Shown here: positions 2,055-37,348 of the stretch, in pieces
How positions within the stretch are numbered: the stretch's first letter is position 1
How the letters are laid out: the number at the start of each line of letters is the position of its first letter
Notes under the pieces: model-generated
Seen by the model: only the letters and a program-made list of their open reading frames with translations
The model's database searches: none
What the model was told of the DNA's origin: nothing
Made by a program: the position numbers and the translations under genes
NCBI GenBank assembly: GCA_964464695.1
Contig: CAYXKW010000006.1
Location: 2,489-66,488 of the forward strand
Length of the DNA: 64,000 nucleotides
Direction of reading: 5' to 3'
Source: an uncultured Candidatus Saccharibacteria bacterium
GTDB lineage: Bacteria > Patescibacteriota > Minisyncoccia > Phycocordibacterales > UBA5272

Positions 2055-4283
2055 ATGCAAACCATCTCCACTCAAATAAACTTTCTCAAAAAATATTCTA
2101 AGCTCTCAAAGTACATATTAGCTGTAGTTGTATTTGGTCTGGGGTCTGTCAGTCTGTTGTCTTCCCCAATCTCACCTGTTAATGCCGCCACAACAGTCGG
2201 AGTCTCCAACACCACCATCGTCCCACAAGGTCTTGTCGGTTATTGGACTTTTGATGGTAAAAATATGACGAATGCCACCGCTACGGATATAAGTGGGAGT
2301 GGTCTTAACGGAACACTTAAGAACATGACAACAGCTGGGAGTGCTATCCCAGGTAAGATGGGGCAAGCACTAAAGTTTAATGGAACAAGTAATTACATTA
2401 ATCTTGGGTCATCTGCAGTAGACAACTCAGTTTATTCAATCTCACTGTGGGTTTATAATTATGGATCAACCACTGGGCAAGTATTTATGCGTGGGAATGG
2501 AACAAGTTATTGTTTTTATAATCCATCTATATATATTGGGAATGGAACTATATCTGTTGCGGAAACAGGATGTTCAGGTGGTGGAACTATAGGATCGAAA
2601 GCACTAACAAAAGGTTGGCATCACATAGTAATTACACGTAATGGTCAGAATGCAATTTTCTATGTTGATGGTGTAGTTGTAGCAACAGATAATAGTAATA
2701 ATGGAGGAAATCCAACTCAGGGCGTTTTAATTTTTGGAGCAGCCCCAACAAATCCATCCGGAAGCACTGTAACAAATTATTTTGATGGTGCATTGGACGA
2801 CGTCCGCATCTACAACCGCGCAATCACCTCATCTGAAGTCCAAACCCTCTACAGAGCAGGTGGGGGAGTCCTAACTACTGCAACACCAAGTACAAGTAAT
2901 GCGGTCAGCTTAAATTCAGGACTTGCCGGGTATTGGACATTCGATGGAAAGAATATGACGAATGCTACCGCAACAGACATGAGCGGAAATGGGAACAACG
3001 GAACGCTAACGAATATGTCAAAATTAAGTAATGCGGTTGTAGGAAAGATAGGACAAGCACTAAAATTTGTAGGTGGGACAAATACGTTTGTGAGTGTTAA
3101 AGATAGTAATTCCCTTGATACGACATCTGATTTAACTATTTCAACATGGGTAAAAGCGAATAGTTGGACAGGTGAAAGTATCTATAACTATTCCACACTT
3201 GTAAAAAAAGATCAAAATTATATTTTACGTGCAGATAGTGTAACTATTTCAGGGTGTGGTGCAACAACTCAATTAAAGTTACTTTGGTTTAATGGGTCGT
3301 ATATTGATTCTTATTGTGTAGCACTCCCAACTGTGGGTATGTGGCACCATATTGTTGCTACTGTGCAAGGTGGAACGACTAAAAAAATGTATATTGATGG
3401 GGTACTCCAATCAGGTTCATATCATCCCAATGTAACCACCTTAGCAAGAAATTTAACTGTTAACTTATCAATTGGGGATCATCAAAGTTCCGGAGGAGAA
3501 GGTTTTGATGGACAGTTAGATGAAGTTCGTGTATATACACGTGCACTTTCCGCGCAAGAAGTTCAGTCCCTCTATAAACTTGGCCAAACACTAACATCGG
3601 TCAGTCCAACAAATAATAACGGTACTGGCATCAACTCCGGTCTCATTGGTTACTGGCCATTTGATGGGAAGTATATGACGAATACTACTGTACTCGATGC
3701 AAGTGGGAATGGTCTAACCGGTACATTAACCAACATGACTCGGAATGGTAGTGCTGTTATTGGAAAGATTGGACAAGGTTTAAAATTCACCGGAGCTGGT
3801 CAGTATATATCACTAGGTACTCCAGCATCTTTGGATTTGCGAAGTGCTCATAGTATTTCAGTGTGGGTAAAAACTAACGTTCTAAACACTACACAGACAA
3901 TATTTGCCGCAGGCACACAAGGATGTTGTGGTACAGAGAACTTATTTAGTCTTAATTACAACGGTGGAGGTGGAACATATAGACCACAGTATGCACATAG
4001 TGCATTTACTAGTCTAGATGCCGCACCACCAGACTTGAAAACTAACACATGGTACCACATAGTTGCAACTTGGGACGGATCAGCTACCCAGAAGATATAT
4101 ATAAATGGAATCTTAAGTAATTCAGGAGCGTTAACAGGGATTGGAAGTTTTGGAAATATTGCTAATATTGGAGCAACAGATGGAGGGGCTACATCTTTTA
4201 ACGGAACCATGGACGATCTGAGGGTGTATAGTCGAGAACTTTCTACATCCGATGTGAAAGCACTGTATAAGTTAGGAAATTAA
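2055..4283 (+). CDS. Secreted protein with three tandem LamG / concanavalin A-like lectin domains
   Basis: N-terminal signal/TM segment (LAVVVFGLGSVSLL). There are three ~230-aa internal repeats, each opening with GL(V/A/I)GYW(T/P)FDGK(N/Y)MTN..D.SG.G.NGTL.NM and closing with LD(D/E)VR(I/V)Y.RA(I/L)(T/S)..EV..LY; the third repeat ends MDDLRVYSRELSTSDVKALY. This matches the LamG_3-type pattern. Confidence 0.7.
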   Translation: MQTISTQINFLKKYSKLSKYILAVVVFGLGSVSLLSSPISPVNAATTVGVSNTTIVPQGLVGYWTFDGKNMTNATATDISGSGLNGTLKNMTTAGSAIPGKMGQALKFNGTSNYINLGSSAVDNSVYSISLWVYNYGSTTGQVFMRGNGTSYCFYNPSIYIGNGTISVAETGCSGGGTIGSKALTKGWHHIVITRNGQNAIFYVDGVVVATDNSNNGGNPTQGVLIFGAAPTNPSGSTVTNYFDGALDDVRIYNRAITSSEVQTLYRAGGGVLTTATPSTSNAVSLNSGLAGYWTFDGKNMTNATATDMSGNGNNGTLTNMSKLSNAVVGKIGQALKFVGGTNTFVSVKDSNSLDTTSDLTISTWVKANSWTGESIYNYSTLVKKDQNYILRADSVTISGCGATTQLKLLWFNGSYIDSYCVALPTVGMWHHIVATVQGGTTKKMYIDGVLQSGSYHPNVTTLARNLTVNLSIGDHQSSGGEGFDGQLDEVRVYTRALSAQEVQSLYKLGQTLTSVSPTNNNGTGINSGLIGYWPFDGKYMTNTTVLDASGNGLTGTLTNMTRNGSAVIGKIGQGLKFTGAGQYISLGTPASLDLRSAHSISVWVKTNVLNTTQTIFAAGTQGCCGTENLFSLNYNGGGGTYRPQYAHSAFTSLDAAPPDLKTNTWYHIVATWDGSATQKIYINGILSNSGALTGIGSFGNIANIGATDGGATSFNGTMDDLRVYSRELSTSDVKALYKLGN

Positions 4284-4715
4284 ATAATAGAAGTTTTACG
4301 ATAACGCGCCCTAAGTAGGGTACTTATTTAAAATTATTTAAGACAGTAATCAGCACAAACTTATCAACAAGTTGTACAAACTAAAGATGATTATTAACAT
4401 TATGAATGCTCTTGCAAAATCAGAAATATTTTTTGGCGTGTCATCAATTTGATTTATTTCCCTTGTAATTCTCCTCGAAGTGTCTCTTGTGTACCTCATT
4501 ATCATTGCATATAAGTTCGTTACTATCTCTGAAACAATAAAAAAGAAGACAGGAGGGTCTCCTTAAACAATTAATAGCGAAGGCAAGACCTTTGTTCTTT
4601 TTCGATATACGTCCATTATTTTTATAATGGCGCAATTTACAGCTAGTGTATTAAAAATAGTGCTCCACAGAAAGTCACATTAAGAAATGCTATAATTAGA
4701 GTACGTTATATATCT

Positions 4716-6350: not shown

Positions 6351-6977
6351 GTGATTGTACTTACGAAAAAAGACACCATTGAAGGTAAAATTAAAGCGCT
6401 TTATTCTGCAAATTTTTCTATTGCTGAAGTAGCAGAAGAACTCAATATGTCACCATCGGGTATTCGGTATCATTTGGTAAAAAATGGAGTAAACATAAGA
6501 AAACGATCTGATGCTGTTAGGGTTAAGCATAATAAAAAATTAAATAGTCATAGTTCGCATATTCCAAAAAATATTCCTATTAATTTACAAAAGATTTATT
6601 TTATAGGATTGTCGCTTTATTGGGGTGAAGGATCGAAAACTGGTAACACGGTTGCAATTACAAATAGTGACCCGTCACTTATTCTCTCTTTTCTTGTGTT
6701 TCTACGTAAAATTTGTTTAATAGATGAAAAAAGACTTCATATCCTTATTCATTACCATGAAAATCAAAATGAGGATTCATTAATTAGACATTGGTCGGAA
6801 ATATGTAAAATTCCAAAGGCGCAATTCTATAAAAGCAGTCTTCATAAAAAAAGTAGTAAAAAGTCGACAAACTATTTAAAATTTGGTACTATTTCACTAC
6901 GCTATGCAGATACAGTCTTGTTTAATGAGTTATTAATAAGGATTGAGCAGTTGAAGATAGTAAATAAGCCAGAATAG
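6351..6977 (+). CDS. HTH-containing protein with a LAGLIDADG-like motif (possible free-standing homing endonuclease); its 3' end overlaps tRNA-Thr
   Basis: N-terminal HTH-like stretch (FSIAEVAEELNMSPSGIRYHLVKNG). A central YFIGLSLYWGEGSKTG resembles the LAGLIDADG core (compare LAGFVDGDGS and LLGLWIGDG). The stop codon (6975-6977) lies inside the tRNA-Thr acceptor stem. Confidence 0.35.
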   Translation: MIVLTKKDTIEGKIKALYSANFSIAEVAEELNMSPSGIRYHLVKNGVNIRKRSDAVRVKHNKKLNSHSSHIPKNIPINLQKIYFIGLSLYWGEGSKTGNTVAITNSDPSLILSFLVFLRKICLIDEKRLHILIHYHENQNEDSLIRHWSEICKIPKAQFYKSSLHKKSSKKSTNYLKFGTISLRYADTVLFNELLIRIEQLKIVNKPE

Positions 6978-14703: not shown

Positions 14704-16878
<2,175 letters not shown>

Positions 16879-16905
16879 ATTGCTAAACAAGTGCTACAAA
16901 GAAAA

Positions 16906-16948
16906 GAGGACACTGAGTCGCAAGGCCCGAGTGTCCTCTTTTCTTTTT
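16906..16948 (+). terminator. Rho-independent terminator after gyrB
   Basis: GAGGACAC...GTGTCCTC stem followed by TTTTCTTTTT. Confidence 0.7.
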
Positions 16949-17006
16949 CTCTCAACTATAGTAGAGTTAGTTTGGTTGTTTTATAAATCACGAAAGGAAA
17001 CAAACA

Positions 17007-17336
17007 ATGGGAACAGTAACTGTGCATATGACAGACATCCAAGGTGTACTTCTTGGGTTTTGCGATAGACACCAAGGATGTAGGAATATGTCATGTGTTG
17101 AATTTAAAAGCTGTCAGTACCACTGTGAAGACGCCTTGCTTTTGCATCAAGAAAAAAGAAGAAAAAATGGTTTGGGTGCAGGTGATGGGGCACATCTGCC
17201 ATCTGGATTACCAGGTGAACGTGGTGGGCCTGATGATTTCATTGCTGGGGAAATTGCCTGGGATTCGGGTACATCAAACGCTAAAGATCCTCATGATGGA
17301 GACTTTGACGATAGGCAGTTGCCGATCTTTCGGTAA
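17007..17336 (+). CDS. Hypothetical small Cys-rich protein (109 aa) in a GC-elevated island
   Basis: SD AAAGGAAA lies 7 nt upstream. The N-terminus has 5 Cys (CDRHQGC..C..C...C). It overlaps alternative-frame ORFs, so coding status is uncertain. Confidence 0.25.
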   Translation: MGTVTVHMTDIQGVLLGFCDRHQGCRNMSCVEFKSCQYHCEDALLLHQEKRRKNGLGAGDGAHLPSGLPGERGGPDDFIAGEIAWDSGTSNAKDPHDGDFDDRQLPIFR

Positions 17337-17438
17337 AACAGTTTCTTATATGCTTCGCGTCCGCGGAGCATTTTTTATTGACTTAGTGTGACTGTTTCTT
17401 TACTATTGTATATAGGTGTAACTACAGAAGGAATCATC

Positions 17439-17672
17439 ATGCTCGAAATTGACATGAAAGATCTCAGTTCATTGTCCGCAATCGCAGAGGCTTTACGGGA
17501 AAATAGGATTCTTGCAGCAACATGTCAGTTGATGCAGCCTCACTGTGTTGCTTCAAATGAGGAACGGTTTAGGCCAATTGCTACAGTATGGATCAATTCT
17601 ACCCCTTTAAAGCTCAATGTGTACGCACTGGAAATATCACCAGCTGGAGGAAATGATGGGAAATCAAAATAA
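17439..17672 (+). CDS. Hypothetical small protein (about 78 aa)
   Basis: Internal Met MLEIDMKD preceded by SD GAAGGA with 6-nt spacing. No known motif. Confidence 0.25.
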   Translation: MLEIDMKDLSSLSAIAEALRENRILAATCQLMQPHCVASNEERFRPIATVWINSTPLKLNVYALEISPAGGNDGKSK

Positions 17673-17835
17673 TGACATGAAGCCAGGTAAAGGGGAGGCT
17701 ACCTCTTGCCCTCGTCAATCGTGGCCGATATCTCAAGATTGGATGTTTTCAAAAGATAGTCTTCCGCATTTTGTGGGGCTAACAAAGAAACCCACGAATA
17801 AGGATCCACTTTCTTGTGATTCATTGAAAAAATAA
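17653..17835 (+). CDS. Hypothetical small protein (about 60 aa)
   Basis: SD GGAGGA 4 nt upstream of ATGATG. Followed by hairpins and a terminator (CTCGCA..TGCGAG + T6) at 17868-17893. Confidence 0.25.
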   Translation: MMGNQNNDMKPGKGEATSCPRQSWPISQDWMFSKDSLPHFVGLTKKPTNKDPLSCDSLKK

Positions 17836-17970
17836 ATTTCATATCTGTAACATATGTGTTACAACTTCAAACTCGCAAGTATTGTGCGAGTTTTTTCTTG
17901 CATGATTTATAAATAGGAGTAGGATTGAGCGAGGTAGTTACATATAGAAATATTAAAGAAAGGCAAAAAG

Positions 17971-18522
17971 ATGGAAAAAGCACTCCAAAGAATTTACAGT
18001 GATGCTGAAATTGCATATCAAGAGGTAGTACTCCTTGTGTCACTCTATAATGACGACCATCAAAAGAATGGCCCATGCAAGCAATTACTTGGAATAGAAG
18101 AAGATATGTCGAGACATCTTCTTGTTAAGTCATTTGCACTTGTGCTCGGCTCTTCTTTTGAGGCACATTGCGGAAAAGTTTTGCAAGCCTCAGTTGATCT
18201 TACTCGGTCAGACTGGGTTAAAACCGTCGTTAGCTATGTGATGAATGACAAACATCCACAAAAAGTATTAACAAAGGAAGATGAACATTCTTGGCTTTGT
18301 ATTAAAGATTCGAATGTATGGGTTGATATTTTACCTCAGGGTTCTGGTATGAGTTGGTTAACACCGGTAAAGTATTTACCTGGTCCACGTAGACCAGGTT
18401 ACTCACGGGGGCTAATAGATAAAAAAAATACACCAAGCATGCAACAGTTTCTTGAATTTTCGAAATATCTTGAAGCTCTTAGGTTAAATCGAGACCCAAG
18501 AGTATTTGGCGGAAACAAATGA
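17971..18522 (+). CDS. Hypothetical 183-aa protein with no recognisable family
   Basis: Clean ORF with SD-like AAAGAAAGG upstream and a bidirectional terminator right after (18531-18560). Confidence 0.4.
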   Translation: MEKALQRIYSDAEIAYQEVVLLVSLYNDDHQKNGPCKQLLGIEEDMSRHLLVKSFALVLGSSFEAHCGKVLQASVDLTRSDWVKTVVSYVMNDKHPQKVLTKEDEHSWLCIKDSNVWVDILPQGSGMSWLTPVKYLPGPRRPGYSRGLIDKKNTPSMQQFLEFSKYLEALRLNRDPRVFGGNK

Positions 18523-18530
18523 AGTGAAAC

Positions 18531-18560
18531 AAAAAAACCAGCGTAGCGCTGGTTTTATTT
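18531..18560. terminator. Bidirectional terminator (A7-CCAGCG tag CGCTGG-T rich) between the 17971 ORF and thrS
   Basis: Perfect 6-bp stem flanked by an A-run and a T-run. Confidence 0.6.
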
Positions 18561-18576
18561 TTTAATAATAGTATAT

Positions 18577-20337
18577 TTATTTTTTCTCGTTAATTTCAGT
18601 CTTTATTTTTTCAATCAATTCATCTAATTTCATTTCTCCAATTTTACCAAGCGCTCGATGTTCAAGAGTTACTGTCCCATTTGTTACTTCAGCATCTCCA
18701 ATGACTGCCCAGTACGGTGTTTTCATTTCACGAACTGCTCGAATTTTTTTACCTAGCCCTTCTCTCGAATTATCTAATTCTACTCGAATATCTTGATTGA
18801 GCAATTCTTTGTGAATTGTCTCTGCATATTCCTGATGCTTATCCGAAATAGGGAGCAAGGTGATTTGGTTCGGAGAAACCCAAAGAGGGAAGTTCCCTGC
18901 AGTATGCTCAATAAATGTAGACATAAACCGTTCAAGACTACCCATAACTGCACAGTGAATCATAACTGGAGTTTCTTTTTTTCCTTCATCATTTACAAAT
19001 TCAAGTTCAAGATTAACTGGCTGTACGAAGTCTAGTTGGATTGTAGCTACTTGCCATGTGCGTCCGATTGAATCTTTTGCCATGAAGTCGATTTTTGGGC
19101 CATAAAAAGCAGCTTCTCCAGGACCGTCTATCCATGTATCACTACTACGAGCATCAATTAGATTCTTAATTGCACTTTCAGCCTTGTCCCATCCGTCAGT
19201 GCTCCCCATGTACTTTTCAGGAAGTGCAGGGTCACGACGTGAGAATCGAGGAACAAGCGAGAAACCAAATGTTCCATAAAATTCTGAAATAATATCCCAG
19301 ACATTACCCATTTCTGTTTCGAGTTGAGATTCACGACAAAATACGTGCGCATCATCTTGTGTAATAGAGAGTACTCGTGCAAGACCCGATAGCTCGCCAG
19401 ATTGCTCATCGCGGTATACCATTGTTGTCTCGCAGAAACGAATAGGGAGTTCTTTGTATGAACGCATCTCACTTGCATATATCTGTGCGTGGTGTGGACA
19501 GTTCATCGGTTTCATACAAAATGTATGTCCGTCACGAGTGTTTATTTTGAAGAGGTCCTCAGCATACTTTGCCCAGTGCCCACTCTTAATATACAAATCA
19601 TTTTTAGTGATATGAGGGATGGTAACTTTTTGGTAGCCTTGTTTACGTCTGAGTGACCATAGGTAGTCATTTAAAGTCTCTCGCACTATTGTTCCACGTG
19701 GTGTCCAGAGTGGTAGTCCAGGCCCAACGAGGTCGCTGAATGTAAAAAGCCTCAACTGCTTCCCAAGAATTCTATGATCTCGCTTCTTAGCTTCTTCTTG
19801 TTGAGTTGTGTATGCGTCTAATGCCTCTTTACTTTCAAAAGCAATACCATATATACGCGTAAGCATTGCGTTTTTTTCATCTCCTCGCCAATATGCTCCA
19901 GCAACATGAGAAAGCTTGAAGCTGTCTTGTGGAATTTCTTTTGTGTTAGTAACGTGAGGCCCTTCACAGAGATCAAAGAAGTCTTTTCCTGTACGGTAGA
20001 GCGTTACATCAACTCCTGCTTTTTCTATACTATCAATTATTTCTAGCTTGAAGCTGTTATCTTTAAATAGTTCTTTTGCTTGTAGTACAGGGACCGTTTC
20101 GACAATAAATTCAAGATTTTGCGAAAGGATTTTTCGCATATCTTTTTCTAGAGCGTCGAGGTCATCTTCTCCAATTTTTATACCGCCGAAGTCTACATCA
20201 TAATAAAAGCCGTTATCGGTCACAGGGCCAATTGTTGGGAGTGCTTTTGGGAACTTCTTCGAAATAGCCATAAGAAGCACGTGTGCCAAAGAGTGTCGAT
20301 TGTTAAATAATTGGTTTGTTTCCTGATTGTTTGCCAT
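18577..20337 (-). CDS. thrS: Threonine--tRNA ligase
   Basis: Class II aaRS motifs, a Zn-binding catalytic core (CPHHAQIY, HCAVMGS) and a C-terminal anticodon-binding domain. 586 aa. Confidence 0.9.
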   Translation of the reverse strand: MANNQETNQLFNNRHSLAHVLLMAISKKFPKALPTIGPVTDNGFYYDVDFGGIKIGEDDLDALEKDMRKILSQNLEFIVETVPVLQAKELFKDNSFKLEIIDSIEKAGVDVTLYRTGKDFFDLCEGPHVTNTKEIPQDSFKLSHVAGAYWRGDEKNAMLTRIYGIAFESKEALDAYTTQQEEAKKRDHRILGKQLRLFTFSDLVGPGLPLWTPRGTIVRETLNDYLWSLRRKQGYQKVTIPHITKNDLYIKSGHWAKYAEDLFKINTRDGHTFCMKPMNCPHHAQIYASEMRSYKELPIRFCETTMVYRDEQSGELSGLARVLSITQDDAHVFCRESQLETEMGNVWDIISEFYGTFGFSLVPRFSRRDPALPEKYMGSTDGWDKAESAIKNLIDARSSDTWIDGPGEAAFYGPKIDFMAKDSIGRTWQVATIQLDFVQPVNLELEFVNDEGKKETPVMIHCAVMGSLERFMSTFIEHTAGNFPLWVSPNQITLLPISDKHQEYAETIHKELLNQDIRVELDNSREGLGKKIRAVREMKTPYWAVIGDAEVTNGTVTLEHRALGKIGEMKLDELIEKIKTEINEKK

Positions 20338-36731: not shown

Positions 36732-36970
36732 AAATAAAATTTGGCGAACTACTCGACTTTTCTAATATAAGTTTAGTCTCCAACAAAATAAGAAGCACTG
36801 CACTGCGACTATATTTTGTGCAGTACAGAATAATGAGCGTAGCGACTATATTCTGCCGCCCTACCTGCACATAGAACTTTCCAAACATTACATTAGTCCA
36901 AGTCTGCGTATTTCATCCAGAATTTTACTTTTTGTAATATGACTAATTGATTGTGTGGGCATGGAAAAGA

Positions 36971-36996
36971 AAAAGTGGCACCTTGCGGTGCCACTT
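36971..36996 (-). terminator. Intrinsic terminator of rnpB (minus strand: GUGGCACC-GCAA-GGUGCCAC-U5)
   Basis: Perfect 8-bp stem with a GNRA loop and a T-run on the minus strand. Confidence 0.7.
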
Positions 36997-37003
36997 TCCC
37001 ATC

Positions 37004-37348
37004 TTTGTTCTACCTATAAGCCGAATTCTGTCCGTGTGGTTACCCACACTGTGTAATCATGTATCTGGGCGCCGTGTTACCACTTCGCTCAAGCGACGCT
37101 CCCATATTGCTACGGGCACGGTCTTGCACACACGTAAGGATTTAGCCGTTTCAATCTCACCTCTCGGTAAGCATATTCCCGAAGGAATCCTAGCCTTTCG
37201 GCATCGGCGTCACTGCTCGCACCTCTGTAGTTGCCTACGACGGGGGTTACCCGCTACGCTTATTTTATTTAAAAAATTGAGTGTTCGGACTTTCCTCTCT
37301 CAAGGCTACATTTAAAACTGTAAGAGCGATTACCCAGTAGAACGTTGT
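37004..37348 (-). ncRNA. rnpB: RNase P RNA (ribozyme subunit), compact at about 345 nt
   Basis: Minus-strand sequence contains the P4 strands GAGAGGAAAGUCCGAACAC and ACAGAAUUCGGCUUAUAGG, a 5' segment GGGUAAUCGCU as in Bacillus-type RNase P RNA, GGGUAACCCCCG and GUGGUAACACGGCGCC modules, and a P1 helix GUUCUAC (37338-37344) with GUAGAAC (37008-37014). Confidence 0.85.

Follow-up and report, generated by a model that had tools for sequence, protein, structure and literature searches.

Organization of the gyrB-thrS junction

We examined a 64,000-nucleotide stretch of contig CAYXKW010000006.1 from an uncultured Candidatus Saccharibacteria bacterium (assembly GCA_964464695.1), hereafter referred to as the window, and focused on a gap of approximately 1.7 kb between gyrB on the forward strand and the convergently transcribed thrS on the reverse strand. 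This gap holds only four open reading frames (ORFs), ORF1 to ORF4, which are treated together as the gyrB-thrS islet. The features of the locus are listed below in window coordinates, with lengths in amino acids (aa) and with the pairing energy of each Shine-Dalgarno (SD) sequence to the anti-SD given as a duplex value.

14782-16878, forward strand: gyrB, 698 aa; Pfam DNA_gyraseB, Toprim, DNA_gyraseB_C and HATPase_c; 90-93% identity to the closest species representatives
16898-16946, forward strand: intrinsic terminator of gyrB, a hairpin with perfect 17-nt inverted arms followed by a T-run; -28.7 kcal/mol
17007-17336, forward strand: ORF1, 109 aa with 5 Cys; nine homologous clusters; SD duplex -5.6 kcal/mol
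17350-17377, forward strand: terminator-like hairpin (17350-17371) and T-run closing the ORF1 unit; 9-bp stem with 5 GC pairs and a TTTTTT tail; -14.1 kcal/mol
17378-17406, forward strand: sigma-70-like promoter candidate for ORF2-ORF3, TTGACT-17 nt-TACTAT; 9 of 12 consensus positions, predicted by consensus match only
17439-17672, forward strand: ORF2, 77 aa, acidic; homologues at the equivalent position in five loci; SD duplex -5.7 kcal/mol
17653-17835, forward strand: ORF3, 60 aa, basic, with its own GGAGGA SD; conserved core; SD duplex -9.3 kcal/mol
17846-17863, no strand assigned: perfect 7-bp palindrome TGTAACA-tatg-TGTTACA (TGTAACAtatgTGTTACA); -5.8 kcal/mol, no T-run
17869-17899, forward strand: terminator-like hairpin (17869-17893) and T-run closing the ORF2-ORF3 unit; 9-bp stem; -10.8 kcal/mol
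17898-17925, forward strand: conserved block TTGCATGATT(T)AT..., recognised on direct reading as a weak candidate for the ORF4 promoter (TTGCAT-16 nt-TAGGAT)
17971-18522, forward strand: ORF4, 183 aa, a member of the family here called famA; homologue of protein P0002; SD duplex -3.2 kcal/mol
18534-18556, no strand assigned: bidirectional terminator common to ORF4 and thrS, called on both strands; -13.3 kcal/mol
18577-20337, reverse strand: thrS, 586 aa; Pfam tRNA_SAD, tRNA-synt_2b and HGTP_anticodon; relatives in 80 species-level loci

Much of this layout agreed with an original prediction that had been made from the letters of the sequence. The places of the four ORFs, the 109 residues and five cysteines of ORF1, gyrB and thrS as flanking genes (both confirmed through Pfam), the gyrB terminator, the bidirectional terminator at the ORF4/thrS end and the promoter-like site at 17378-17406 were all recovered. 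The claim of a good SD before each ORF held for ORF1 to ORF3 but not for ORF4, where the duplex is weak, and only one of two proposed internal hairpin terminators stood (17869-17893), the other (17843-17862) being a weak AT-rich palindrome of -5.8 kcal/mol that has no T-run and was not called. From the terminators and the promoter-like site between the genes, three apparent transcription units are predicted, comprising ORF1, ORF2-ORF3 and ORF4.

Conservation and selection

A thrS-based scan of one genome per species of the Genome Taxonomy Database (GTDB) yielded 80 loci; these and the contigs of further ORF1 and ORF4 homologues carry the prefix L below. All 80 were from metagenome-assembled genomes (MAGs) of the Patescibacteria, or candidate phyla radiation (CPR), and most were labelled Paceibacterota, Nomurabacteria or 'Saccharibacteria'. 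The best scan matches showed 78-80% identity in ThrRS and 90-93% in GyrB. We found that the order gyrB, ORF1, ORF2, ORF3, famA, thrS is shared by L015, L093, L095 and L097, with ORF2 and ORF3 fused in L097, and that L001 has the same order with a degenerate ORF1. The contigs of L093, L095 and L097 were reached as those of three further ORF1 homologues. The closest relatives of the window, L097, L095 and L093 (ThrRS identity of 94, 89 and 84%), thus show this gene order as well, in contrast to what a recent insertion would leave.

Selection was assessed by comparing the window with L097, its closest relative (94% identity in the ThrRS C-terminus and 98% in the GyrB C-terminus), using Nei-Gojobori estimates of nonsynonymous (dN) and synonymous (dS) divergence. 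The dN/dS ratio was 0.21 for ORF1 (61% protein identity) and 0.25 for ORF2, compared to 0.011 for gyrB and 0.024 for thrS, and all of these values are approximate because dS, at 1.3-1.6 in ORF1, ORF2, gyrB and thrS alike, is near saturation. Since ORF1 and ORF2 match the flanks in dS, the islet has co-diverged with the chromosome while changing approximately 10 times faster at the protein level. We determined that ORF1 and ORF2 are under purifying selection approximately 10-fold weaker than that acting on the flanking genes, and that ORF3 and ORF4 show protein-level conservation only.

Composition and database searches

The original prediction had read the islet as a stretch of elevated GC, and suggested horizontally acquired cargo such as a small toxin/immunity or phage-derived module. 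The GC content of the islet is 0.398 compared to a window mean of 0.386, placing it at the 73rd percentile of 1.6-kb sliding windows, which is not significant; ORF4 has a GC of 0.39. ORF1 alone is raised (0.45, 95th percentile; first-position GC of 0.59), because of its Gly, Asp, Ala and Pro codons. Its third-position GC (GC3) of 0.33 lies within one standard deviation of the window genes (0.29 +/- 0.04), and the GC3 z-scores of the islet ORFs range from -0.16 to +1.75. The strongest compositional outlier by far among the long ORFs of the window was a 122-aa ORF at 36947-37315 on the forward strand, with a GC of 0.49, a GC3 of 0.48 and no Pfam match, and it lies much further from the window composition than the islet does.

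No integrase or recombinase was found among the four ORFs that make up the gap, no att-like repeats flank it (direct repeats there are short, imperfect and at chance level), and no tRNA gene adjoins it, with the nearest at 6968 and 24890. Single-protein scans of IMG/VR recovered no relatives of any of the four proteins, INPHARED gave no match to ORF4 (tblastn) or to the islet DNA (blastn), and PLSDB gave no match to the islet DNA (blastn). The four proteins had no significant match in Pfam, NCBIfam, PHROGs or PADLOC, and in these collections no homology to toxin, antitoxin, defense or phage families was seen. Similarly, PDB sequence searches (profiles of ORF1, ORF3 and ORF4, and the single ORF2 sequence) and Rfam searches (the islet region at a permissive threshold and the whole window at the gathering threshold) were negative, scans of JGI metagenomes with profiles of ORF3 and of ORF1 yielded no relative that could be confirmed, and a literature search on comparable CPR islets returned nothing relevant.

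From this examination, the islet is not GC-rich foreign, phage-derived or recently inserted DNA. The claim of higher GC failed, and acquisition judged by composition or insertion was contradicted by the ordinary GC and GC3, by dS values equal to those of the flanks and by the gene order shared with L001, L015, L093, L095 and L097. Neither a phage origin nor a toxin/immunity or defense module found any match in the databases searched, and the statement that the four products belong to no nameable family was upheld by all of the searches.

ORF1

ORF1 encodes an 11.9-kDa protein in which a Cys/His cluster (C25-x4-C30-x5-C36-x2-H39-C40) is followed by a disordered acidic tail, where Gly, Pro, Asp, Glu and Ser account for 52% of the residues (pI 4.6). 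A profile built from ORF1 and its L015 homologue recovered a family of nine clusters of 53-124 aa, one of them a 53-aa fragment. All members share the motif QGVL.GF, four cysteines and a histidine (C-x4-C-x4/5-C-x-H-x-C), the invariant GLGAGDGAHLPSG and PDDF.AG, and in the tail of the window protein the invariant motifs are GLGAGDGAHLPSG, PDDF.AG and DPHDGDFDDRQLPIF(R). The family C-terminus reads DPHDGD(F/W)DDRQL(P/H)(I/L)(F/Y); QLPIF(R) or QLHLY(R/P) closes five of the eight complete tails and RLGK the other three, leaving DPHDGD(F/W)(D/N)D..L as the conserved part. Judged by their sequences, these invariant blocks look like docking motifs. Every member with known context lies directly 3' of gyrB. 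Pfam matched neither the window protein (E<=1) nor the nine family members (E<=10), and no single-stranded DNA-binding protein (SSB) was found in the fetched loci for comparison with the tail.

A second open frame (17044-17391) overlaps ORF1, and a comparable one is also open in L097 and L095. Its similarity to the relatives is confined to places where ORF1 itself is invariant. Synonymous change in ORF1, relative to L097, is unsuppressed and as fast as in the flanks; therefore, there is no second constraint on the overlapping frame. The RNA fold of 17007-17391 was no better than that of shuffled sequences (z = -0.36). The suggestion that this region is a frameshifted remnant or a structured RNA thus gave way to a conserved coding frame under a dN/dS of 0.21.

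ORF2 and ORF3

ORF2 (pI 5.7) carries an N-terminal helix motif, (I)EIDM.D(L/I)SS(L/F), and a C-terminal motif, N(E/D)ERFRP..TVW(I/V), and the corresponding position in L097 (53% identity), L095, L093, L001 and L015 is taken by a homologue. ORF3 (pI 9.1) shares 20 nt with the end of ORF2, which it reads in the +1 frame. The core of ORF3, WP..QDWMF.K(D/E)SLPH(F/Y)VGLT, is conserved in L001, L015, L093 and L095, and its C-terminal part alone is kept in L097. The ORF3 motif was almost confined to gyrB-thrS gaps. The overlap and its +1 relation are kept in L093, L095, L015 and L001 (where the ORF2 homologue spans 1520-1765 and the ORF3 homologue 1758-1940), with L097 as the sole exception. Translational coupling of the two genes is probable, because they overlap and each has its own SD. 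Programmed frameshifting was set aside, as ORF3 starts in both the window and L001 at an ATG of its own behind a strong SD, and no slippery site was seen on reading the overlap.

In L097, the two genes are fused into one 91-aa ORF (758-1033) through an in-frame deletion of approximately 100 nt, by which the ORF3 motif WMF.K was lost and LPHFVGLT was kept. This fusion could reflect a physical partnership or incipient decay.

ORF4 and the famA family

An exact copy of ORF4 was found in four other samples. Its homologue P0002 (49-50% identity) is the copy in L001, a 20.9-kb contig whose neighbourhood matches that of the window: the end of gyrB is followed by small ORFs, the homologue of ORF4, thrS in opposite orientation, and genes for LemA, M48, LemA and TPM. 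A word-seeded search among 5.8 billion proteins recovered six famA clusters, and an exhaustive HMMER profile search among 1.84 billion proteins recovered 42 representatives. The family comprises approximately 45 clusters, all of single-domain proteins of 137-238 aa. Their alignment shows two invariant positions, G68 and D119, and four that are nearly so (H106, W108, L109 and P122). In approximately half of the family the second helix opens with Cys-His, within NCH...RA.A..F..F.V.DG (the NCH or CP[HY] clades). The window protein has Arg48-His49 at the Cys position, and the clade comprising the window and L001 carries Arg, Ser or Val there.

AlphaFold2 (AF2) models reached a predicted local distance difference test score (pLDDT) of 82 for ORF4, and of 94.6, with a predicted TM-score (pTM) of 0.88, for the Cys-bearing member P0005 built from a 44-sequence alignment. 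The fold is predicted as alpha-alpha-beta(13)-beta-beta(16)-beta-beta-alpha, with H106 and D119 on consecutive strands; the agreement with papain/transglutaminase-type enzymes is one of motif and secondary structure only. Foldseek searches of the PDB with the ORF4 and P0005 models, and of BFVD with the ORF4 model, found no significant neighbour, the best E being 0.095 and the TM-score below 0.26. None of the 45 famA members matched Pfam, PADLOC or PHROGs, and no canonical transglutaminase-core proteins were found in the fetched loci.

In the family tree, ORF4 sides with the copy of the distant L001 (ThrRS 70%) and not with the 'CP[HY]' subfamily of L097, L095 and L093, to which it shows 25-32% identity over partial alignments only. 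Two distant Cys-bearing famA members lie outside gyrB-thrS gaps (L090, 609-1091; L098, 4497-5102), one convergent with topA beside dprA and the other downstream of the thymidylate kinase gene tmk. Topoisomerase linkage as a general rule for famA was rejected on this account.

Variability of the junction across species

We found gyrB and thrS as convergent neighbours in 38 of the 80 loci, separated by gaps of approximately 50 bp to 2.9 kb; in L033, L054, L056 and L066 only approximately 50-70 bp lie between them. Across species the gap cargo includes famA, a SLOG/DprA-like family termed famB, a NUDIX hydrolase, a 2H phosphoesterase, Ham1, an IS1595 transposase (in one species, L075) and many unknowns. 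In a phylogeny based on ThrRS and GyrB, famA and famB are scattered over the clade containing the window, and famA occurs in tandem copies in L009, L086 and L087. Because both the size and the cargo of the gap vary across 38 species, the junction is a variable hotspot where lineage-specific genes have been duplicated, lost, gained and swapped among relatives. The idea of a variable, accessory-type locus was in this respect confirmed for the wider clade.

Several additional observations were made at these junctions. The NUDIX hydrolase, the 2H (LigT-like) phosphoesterase, the Ham1 NTP pyrophosphatase and the IS1595-type transposase are found in different species, in the gaps of L021, L027, L082 and L075. 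The second unnamed family, famB, is approximately 172 aa long, has a TGGATGVD motif and is unrelated to famA, and some gaps hold both. Its copies were located in L008 (3701-4222), L010 (12755-13546), L016 (12139-12669), L021 (10201-10719), L024 (13049-13570), L025 (13191-13712) and L089 (1-510), and its sole Pfam similarity was to DprA/DNA_processg_A (E = 0.055). It was noted that L015 has the closest GyrB of all species representatives (93%) and a ThrRS identity of only 71%, compared to 90-92% and 78-79% in L006-L008. The two flanks may have different histories, and recombination within the gap would then be suggested. In L087, 3' of thrS, a 119-aa 23S_rRNA_IVP/bAvd gene (4139-4498) lies between the genes for LemA and an M48 peptidase and is absent from the equivalent place in the window.

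Expression signals within the islet

The islet genes are conspicuous among the genes of the window for having SDs, with good duplexes for ORF1 to ORF3 and a weak one for ORF4, compared to a mean of -1.5 kcal/mol for the long ORFs used as gene proxies. At the starts of the 48 long ORFs of the window, SD complementarity was weak (the same mean of -1.5 kcal/mol) and no better than at random ATGs (-2.4 kcal/mol). Either many of the longest-ORF starts are wrong, or the organism is sparing with SD-led initiation.

A hairpin and T-run equivalent to the terminator at 17869-17899 is also present in L001, and a block reading TTGCATGATTAT...TAAGAT follows it there, as the similar block at 17898-17925 follows the terminator in the window. 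The window block fell under the threshold of the promoter scan, and from its sequence it is a weak candidate for the ORF4 promoter. The palindrome at 17846-17863 could be a protein-binding site. Four of the 36 TGTAAC(W) sites of the window fall within the 530 bp of non-coding islet DNA (17417-17942); one half-site lies just 3' of each promoter candidate, and two make up the palindrome. A conserved operator formed by these half-sites was rejected, as they are absent from the equivalent places in L001, L093, L095 and L097.

Interpretation of the islet

The islet is probably a chromosomally inherited, non-mobile and fast-evolving variable locus of four genuine genes between the convergent gyrB and thrS. 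The clade that carries it is a genus- or family-level group of ultra-small Paceibacteria (Patescibacteria/CPR), within which each of the four genes represents a tiny CPR-restricted family that had no earlier name. The original prediction is thus borne out in part. Ordinary composition together with purifying selection in syntenic position, which it had named as telling against acquired cargo, were largely found in the immediate lineage, although in the wider clade the genes are patchy and not core; the locus is variable, and its reading as acquired toxin/immunity or phage cargo is unsupported.

Several findings weigh against this interpretation or parts of it. The dN/dS values are approximate, since dS is near saturation. 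For ORF4, either paralogue sorting or lateral replacement would fit the data. The gene famA occurs without ORF1 in L007, L009, L014, L020, L024 and L025, and ORFs with ORF1-like motifs occur without famA in L006 and L012; the four families do not strictly co-occur and therefore may not form one functional system. The L097 fusion deletes the best-conserved motif of ORF3, WMF.K, and so decay rather than a 'Rosetta-stone' interaction is possible. The transcription units are predictions, and the functional part of the interpretation draws on motifs, charge and gene arrangement only.

Among the other explanations, it is unlikely that the islet is horizontally acquired cargo, meaning a recently inserted toxin/immunity, toxin-antitoxin (TA), defense or phage-derived module in which ORF2 and ORF3 form a TA-like pair. 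The junction does vary between species and holds the IS1595 transposase in L075, and the small size, overlap and opposite charges of ORF2 and ORF3 are features of many type II TA pairs. In addition, the flanking genes give a phylogeny with which the ORF4 subfamily disagrees, and the islet genes evolve faster than their neighbours. However, neither GC nor GC3 is anomalous, ORF1 and ORF2 have the dS of the flanks, the gene order is repeated in at least five other lineages, and an integrase, att-like repeats and an adjacent tRNA are all lacking. Matches were likewise absent from PADLOC, PHROGs, the toxin and antitoxin families of Pfam, and NCBIfam, and relatives from IMG/VR, INPHARED and PLSDB. 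It is barely credible that the islet, or at least its stretch 17007-17391, consists of chance frames, the remains of a decaying pseudogene or a structured non-coding RNA. Two long overlapping frames are open there, with a comparable second frame in L097 and L095, but the ORF1 frame is conserved with invariant motifs in nine clusters at a dN/dS of 0.21 and with synonymous change at the flank rate, the similarity of the second frame is confined to ORF1-invariant stretches, and neither an Rfam match nor a fold better than that of shuffled sequences (z = -0.36) was detected.

Two further explanations would assign the islet a specific biochemistry. It is improbable that ORF1 modulates DNA topology or replication, its acidic C-terminal DFDDRQLPIF docking on gyrase, SSB partners or the sliding clamp, and the rest of the islet being accessory. 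The models for such an action would be YacG, a gyrase inhibitor made of a zinc finger and a tail, and the SSB-tail or clamp-binding peptides. ORF1 members of known context all follow gyrB immediately, and they combine a 4-Cys knuckle with an acidic tail whose last residues read DFDDRQLPIF(R) or DWDDRQLHLY, similar to DFDDDIPF at the SSB tip and to the clamp motif QL[SD]LF; one distant famA member also lies beside topA and dprA. The adjacency to gyrB nevertheless counts as a single observation, because the ORF1 loci are all syntenic descendants of one arrangement. Moreover, ORF1 shows no homology to YacG or any zinc-finger family, its Cys spacing is unlike that of CxxC zinc ribbons, three members end in ...RLGK and lack the hydrophobic tip, and another distant famA member follows tmk. 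A peptide-maturation pair, in which ORF1 would be a Cys-rich precursor or substrate, recognised by its invariant GLGAGDG or C-terminal motif and then cut or modified by a Cys-His-Asp enzyme of famA in analogy to papain-like double-glycine peptidases or transglutaminases, appears decidedly improbable. Approximately half of famA has N-C-H at the helix start followed by His (HSWL) and Asp (IIDV.P) on consecutive strands, the Cys, His, Asp order being that of papain/transglutaminase-type triads, in ORF1 a Gly-rich motif is invariant and four cysteines are conserved, and every ORF1 locus with enough contig also has a famA gene. Against this, the window ORF4 and its whole subclade have no such Cys (Arg48), 0 of 45 famA members match Pfam peptidase or transglutaminase models, the model with a pLDDT of 94.6 has no papain-like PDB neighbour by Foldseek, no transporter or other gene for ribosomally synthesized and post-translationally modified peptides (RiPPs) lies nearby, and many loci have famA without ORF1. 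The YacG-like, SSB-tail or clamp, peptide-maturation and TA ideas are retained as low-probability alternatives because each lacks at least one feature of membership.

Proposed functions

For the four genes as chromosomally inherited, lineage-specific genes, a functional sketch can be drawn that, taken as a whole, is doubtful: soluble cytoplasmic proteins acting through protein-protein contacts and not in metabolism. None of the four has a transmembrane segment or a signal-like N-terminus. ORF1 would be a metal-binding 4-Cys knuckle, and the invariant linear motifs in its disordered acidic tail would be bound by a conserved partner in the cell. The acidic ORF2 and the basic ORF3 would form a heterodimer, made in a fixed ratio by translational coupling. 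ORF4 would be a His/Asp-centred alpha/beta domain; the Cys-His subfamilies of famA are possibly enzymes, and the Cys-less ORF4 of the window is more likely a binding or pseudo-enzyme variant. Their role would lie in conflict or adaptation, such as host or phage interaction or the control of a housekeeping machine, and not in a core function; this is preferred over housekeeping because of the relaxed constraint, duplication and variant swapping. A more specific version is quite unlikely, namely a CPR-restricted module of four new families with famA as a new fold having a His/Asp(/Cys) centre, ORF1 as a metal-knuckle adaptor docking through its invariant tail motifs on the replication/topology machinery encoded beside it, ORF2 and ORF3 as a two-subunit regulator, and the swapping as the mark of an arms race of these episymbionts with, for example, their host or their phages.

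Significance and comparison with known systems

An islet of orphan genes at a conserved convergent junction is a familiar phenomenon, and the families encountered here are uncharacterised. CPR genomes are rich in lineage-specific hypothetical genes, and the present cluster is one that is shown to be real, selected and vertically inherited, at a site that is a recombination-prone gap between two convergent housekeeping genes. A caution also follows, that small unknown ORFs amid core genes should not be called foreign without a composition test. The famA family, with a very confident predicted structure and no detectable solved neighbour, is a candidate for a new fold or enzyme class. In ORF1, invariant short motifs within a fast-evolving disordered tail resemble the signature of docking peptides, and its putative partner is of interest, as regulation in these organisms is almost uncharted territory.

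Like YacG and the SSB-tail or clamp peptides, ORF1 is small, with a Cys cluster and an acidic tail bearing an aromatic or hydrophobic tip, and is encoded beside gyrB. It shows no sequence relationship to any of these. Its cysteines are spaced C-x4-C-x4/5-C-x3-C and not as the paired CxxC...CxxxC ligands of YacG, it has no PF03884 match, and a third of the family lacks a conserved tip motif. ORF2 (77 aa) and ORF3 (60 aa) resemble type II TA pairs in being adjacent, overlapping and of opposite net charge in a variable locus. They differ from such pairs in having no homology to toxin or antitoxin families or to a DNA-binding antitoxin fold, in being vertically inherited with their neighbours and in being fused in one relative.

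As in papain, transglutaminase and NAT enzymes, a helix of many famA members starts with Cys-His, and His and Asp follow on two strands in succession. In the shape of its motifs (C..A.A..F...V.DG, HSW and D..P) the family recalls the transglutaminase core, a resemblance that failed every test run and serves as a lead only. In contrast to these enzymes, famA has no profile match or Foldseek neighbour, its strands are unusually long (13-16 residues), and the Cys is missing from the window ORF4 and approximately half of the family. In arrangement the locus parallels accessory-gene hotspots at conserved junctions, above all those between convergent core genes, as the flanks are collinear in 38 species around a gap of approximately 50 bp to 2.9 kb with unrelated cargo, including small hypothetical genes and, in one species, an insertion sequence. 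Here, however, the islet is without mobility genes, att repeats or a compositional signal, ORF1 and ORF2 have co-diverged with the flanks, and the turnover resembles the duplication, loss and variant swapping of lineage-specific families.

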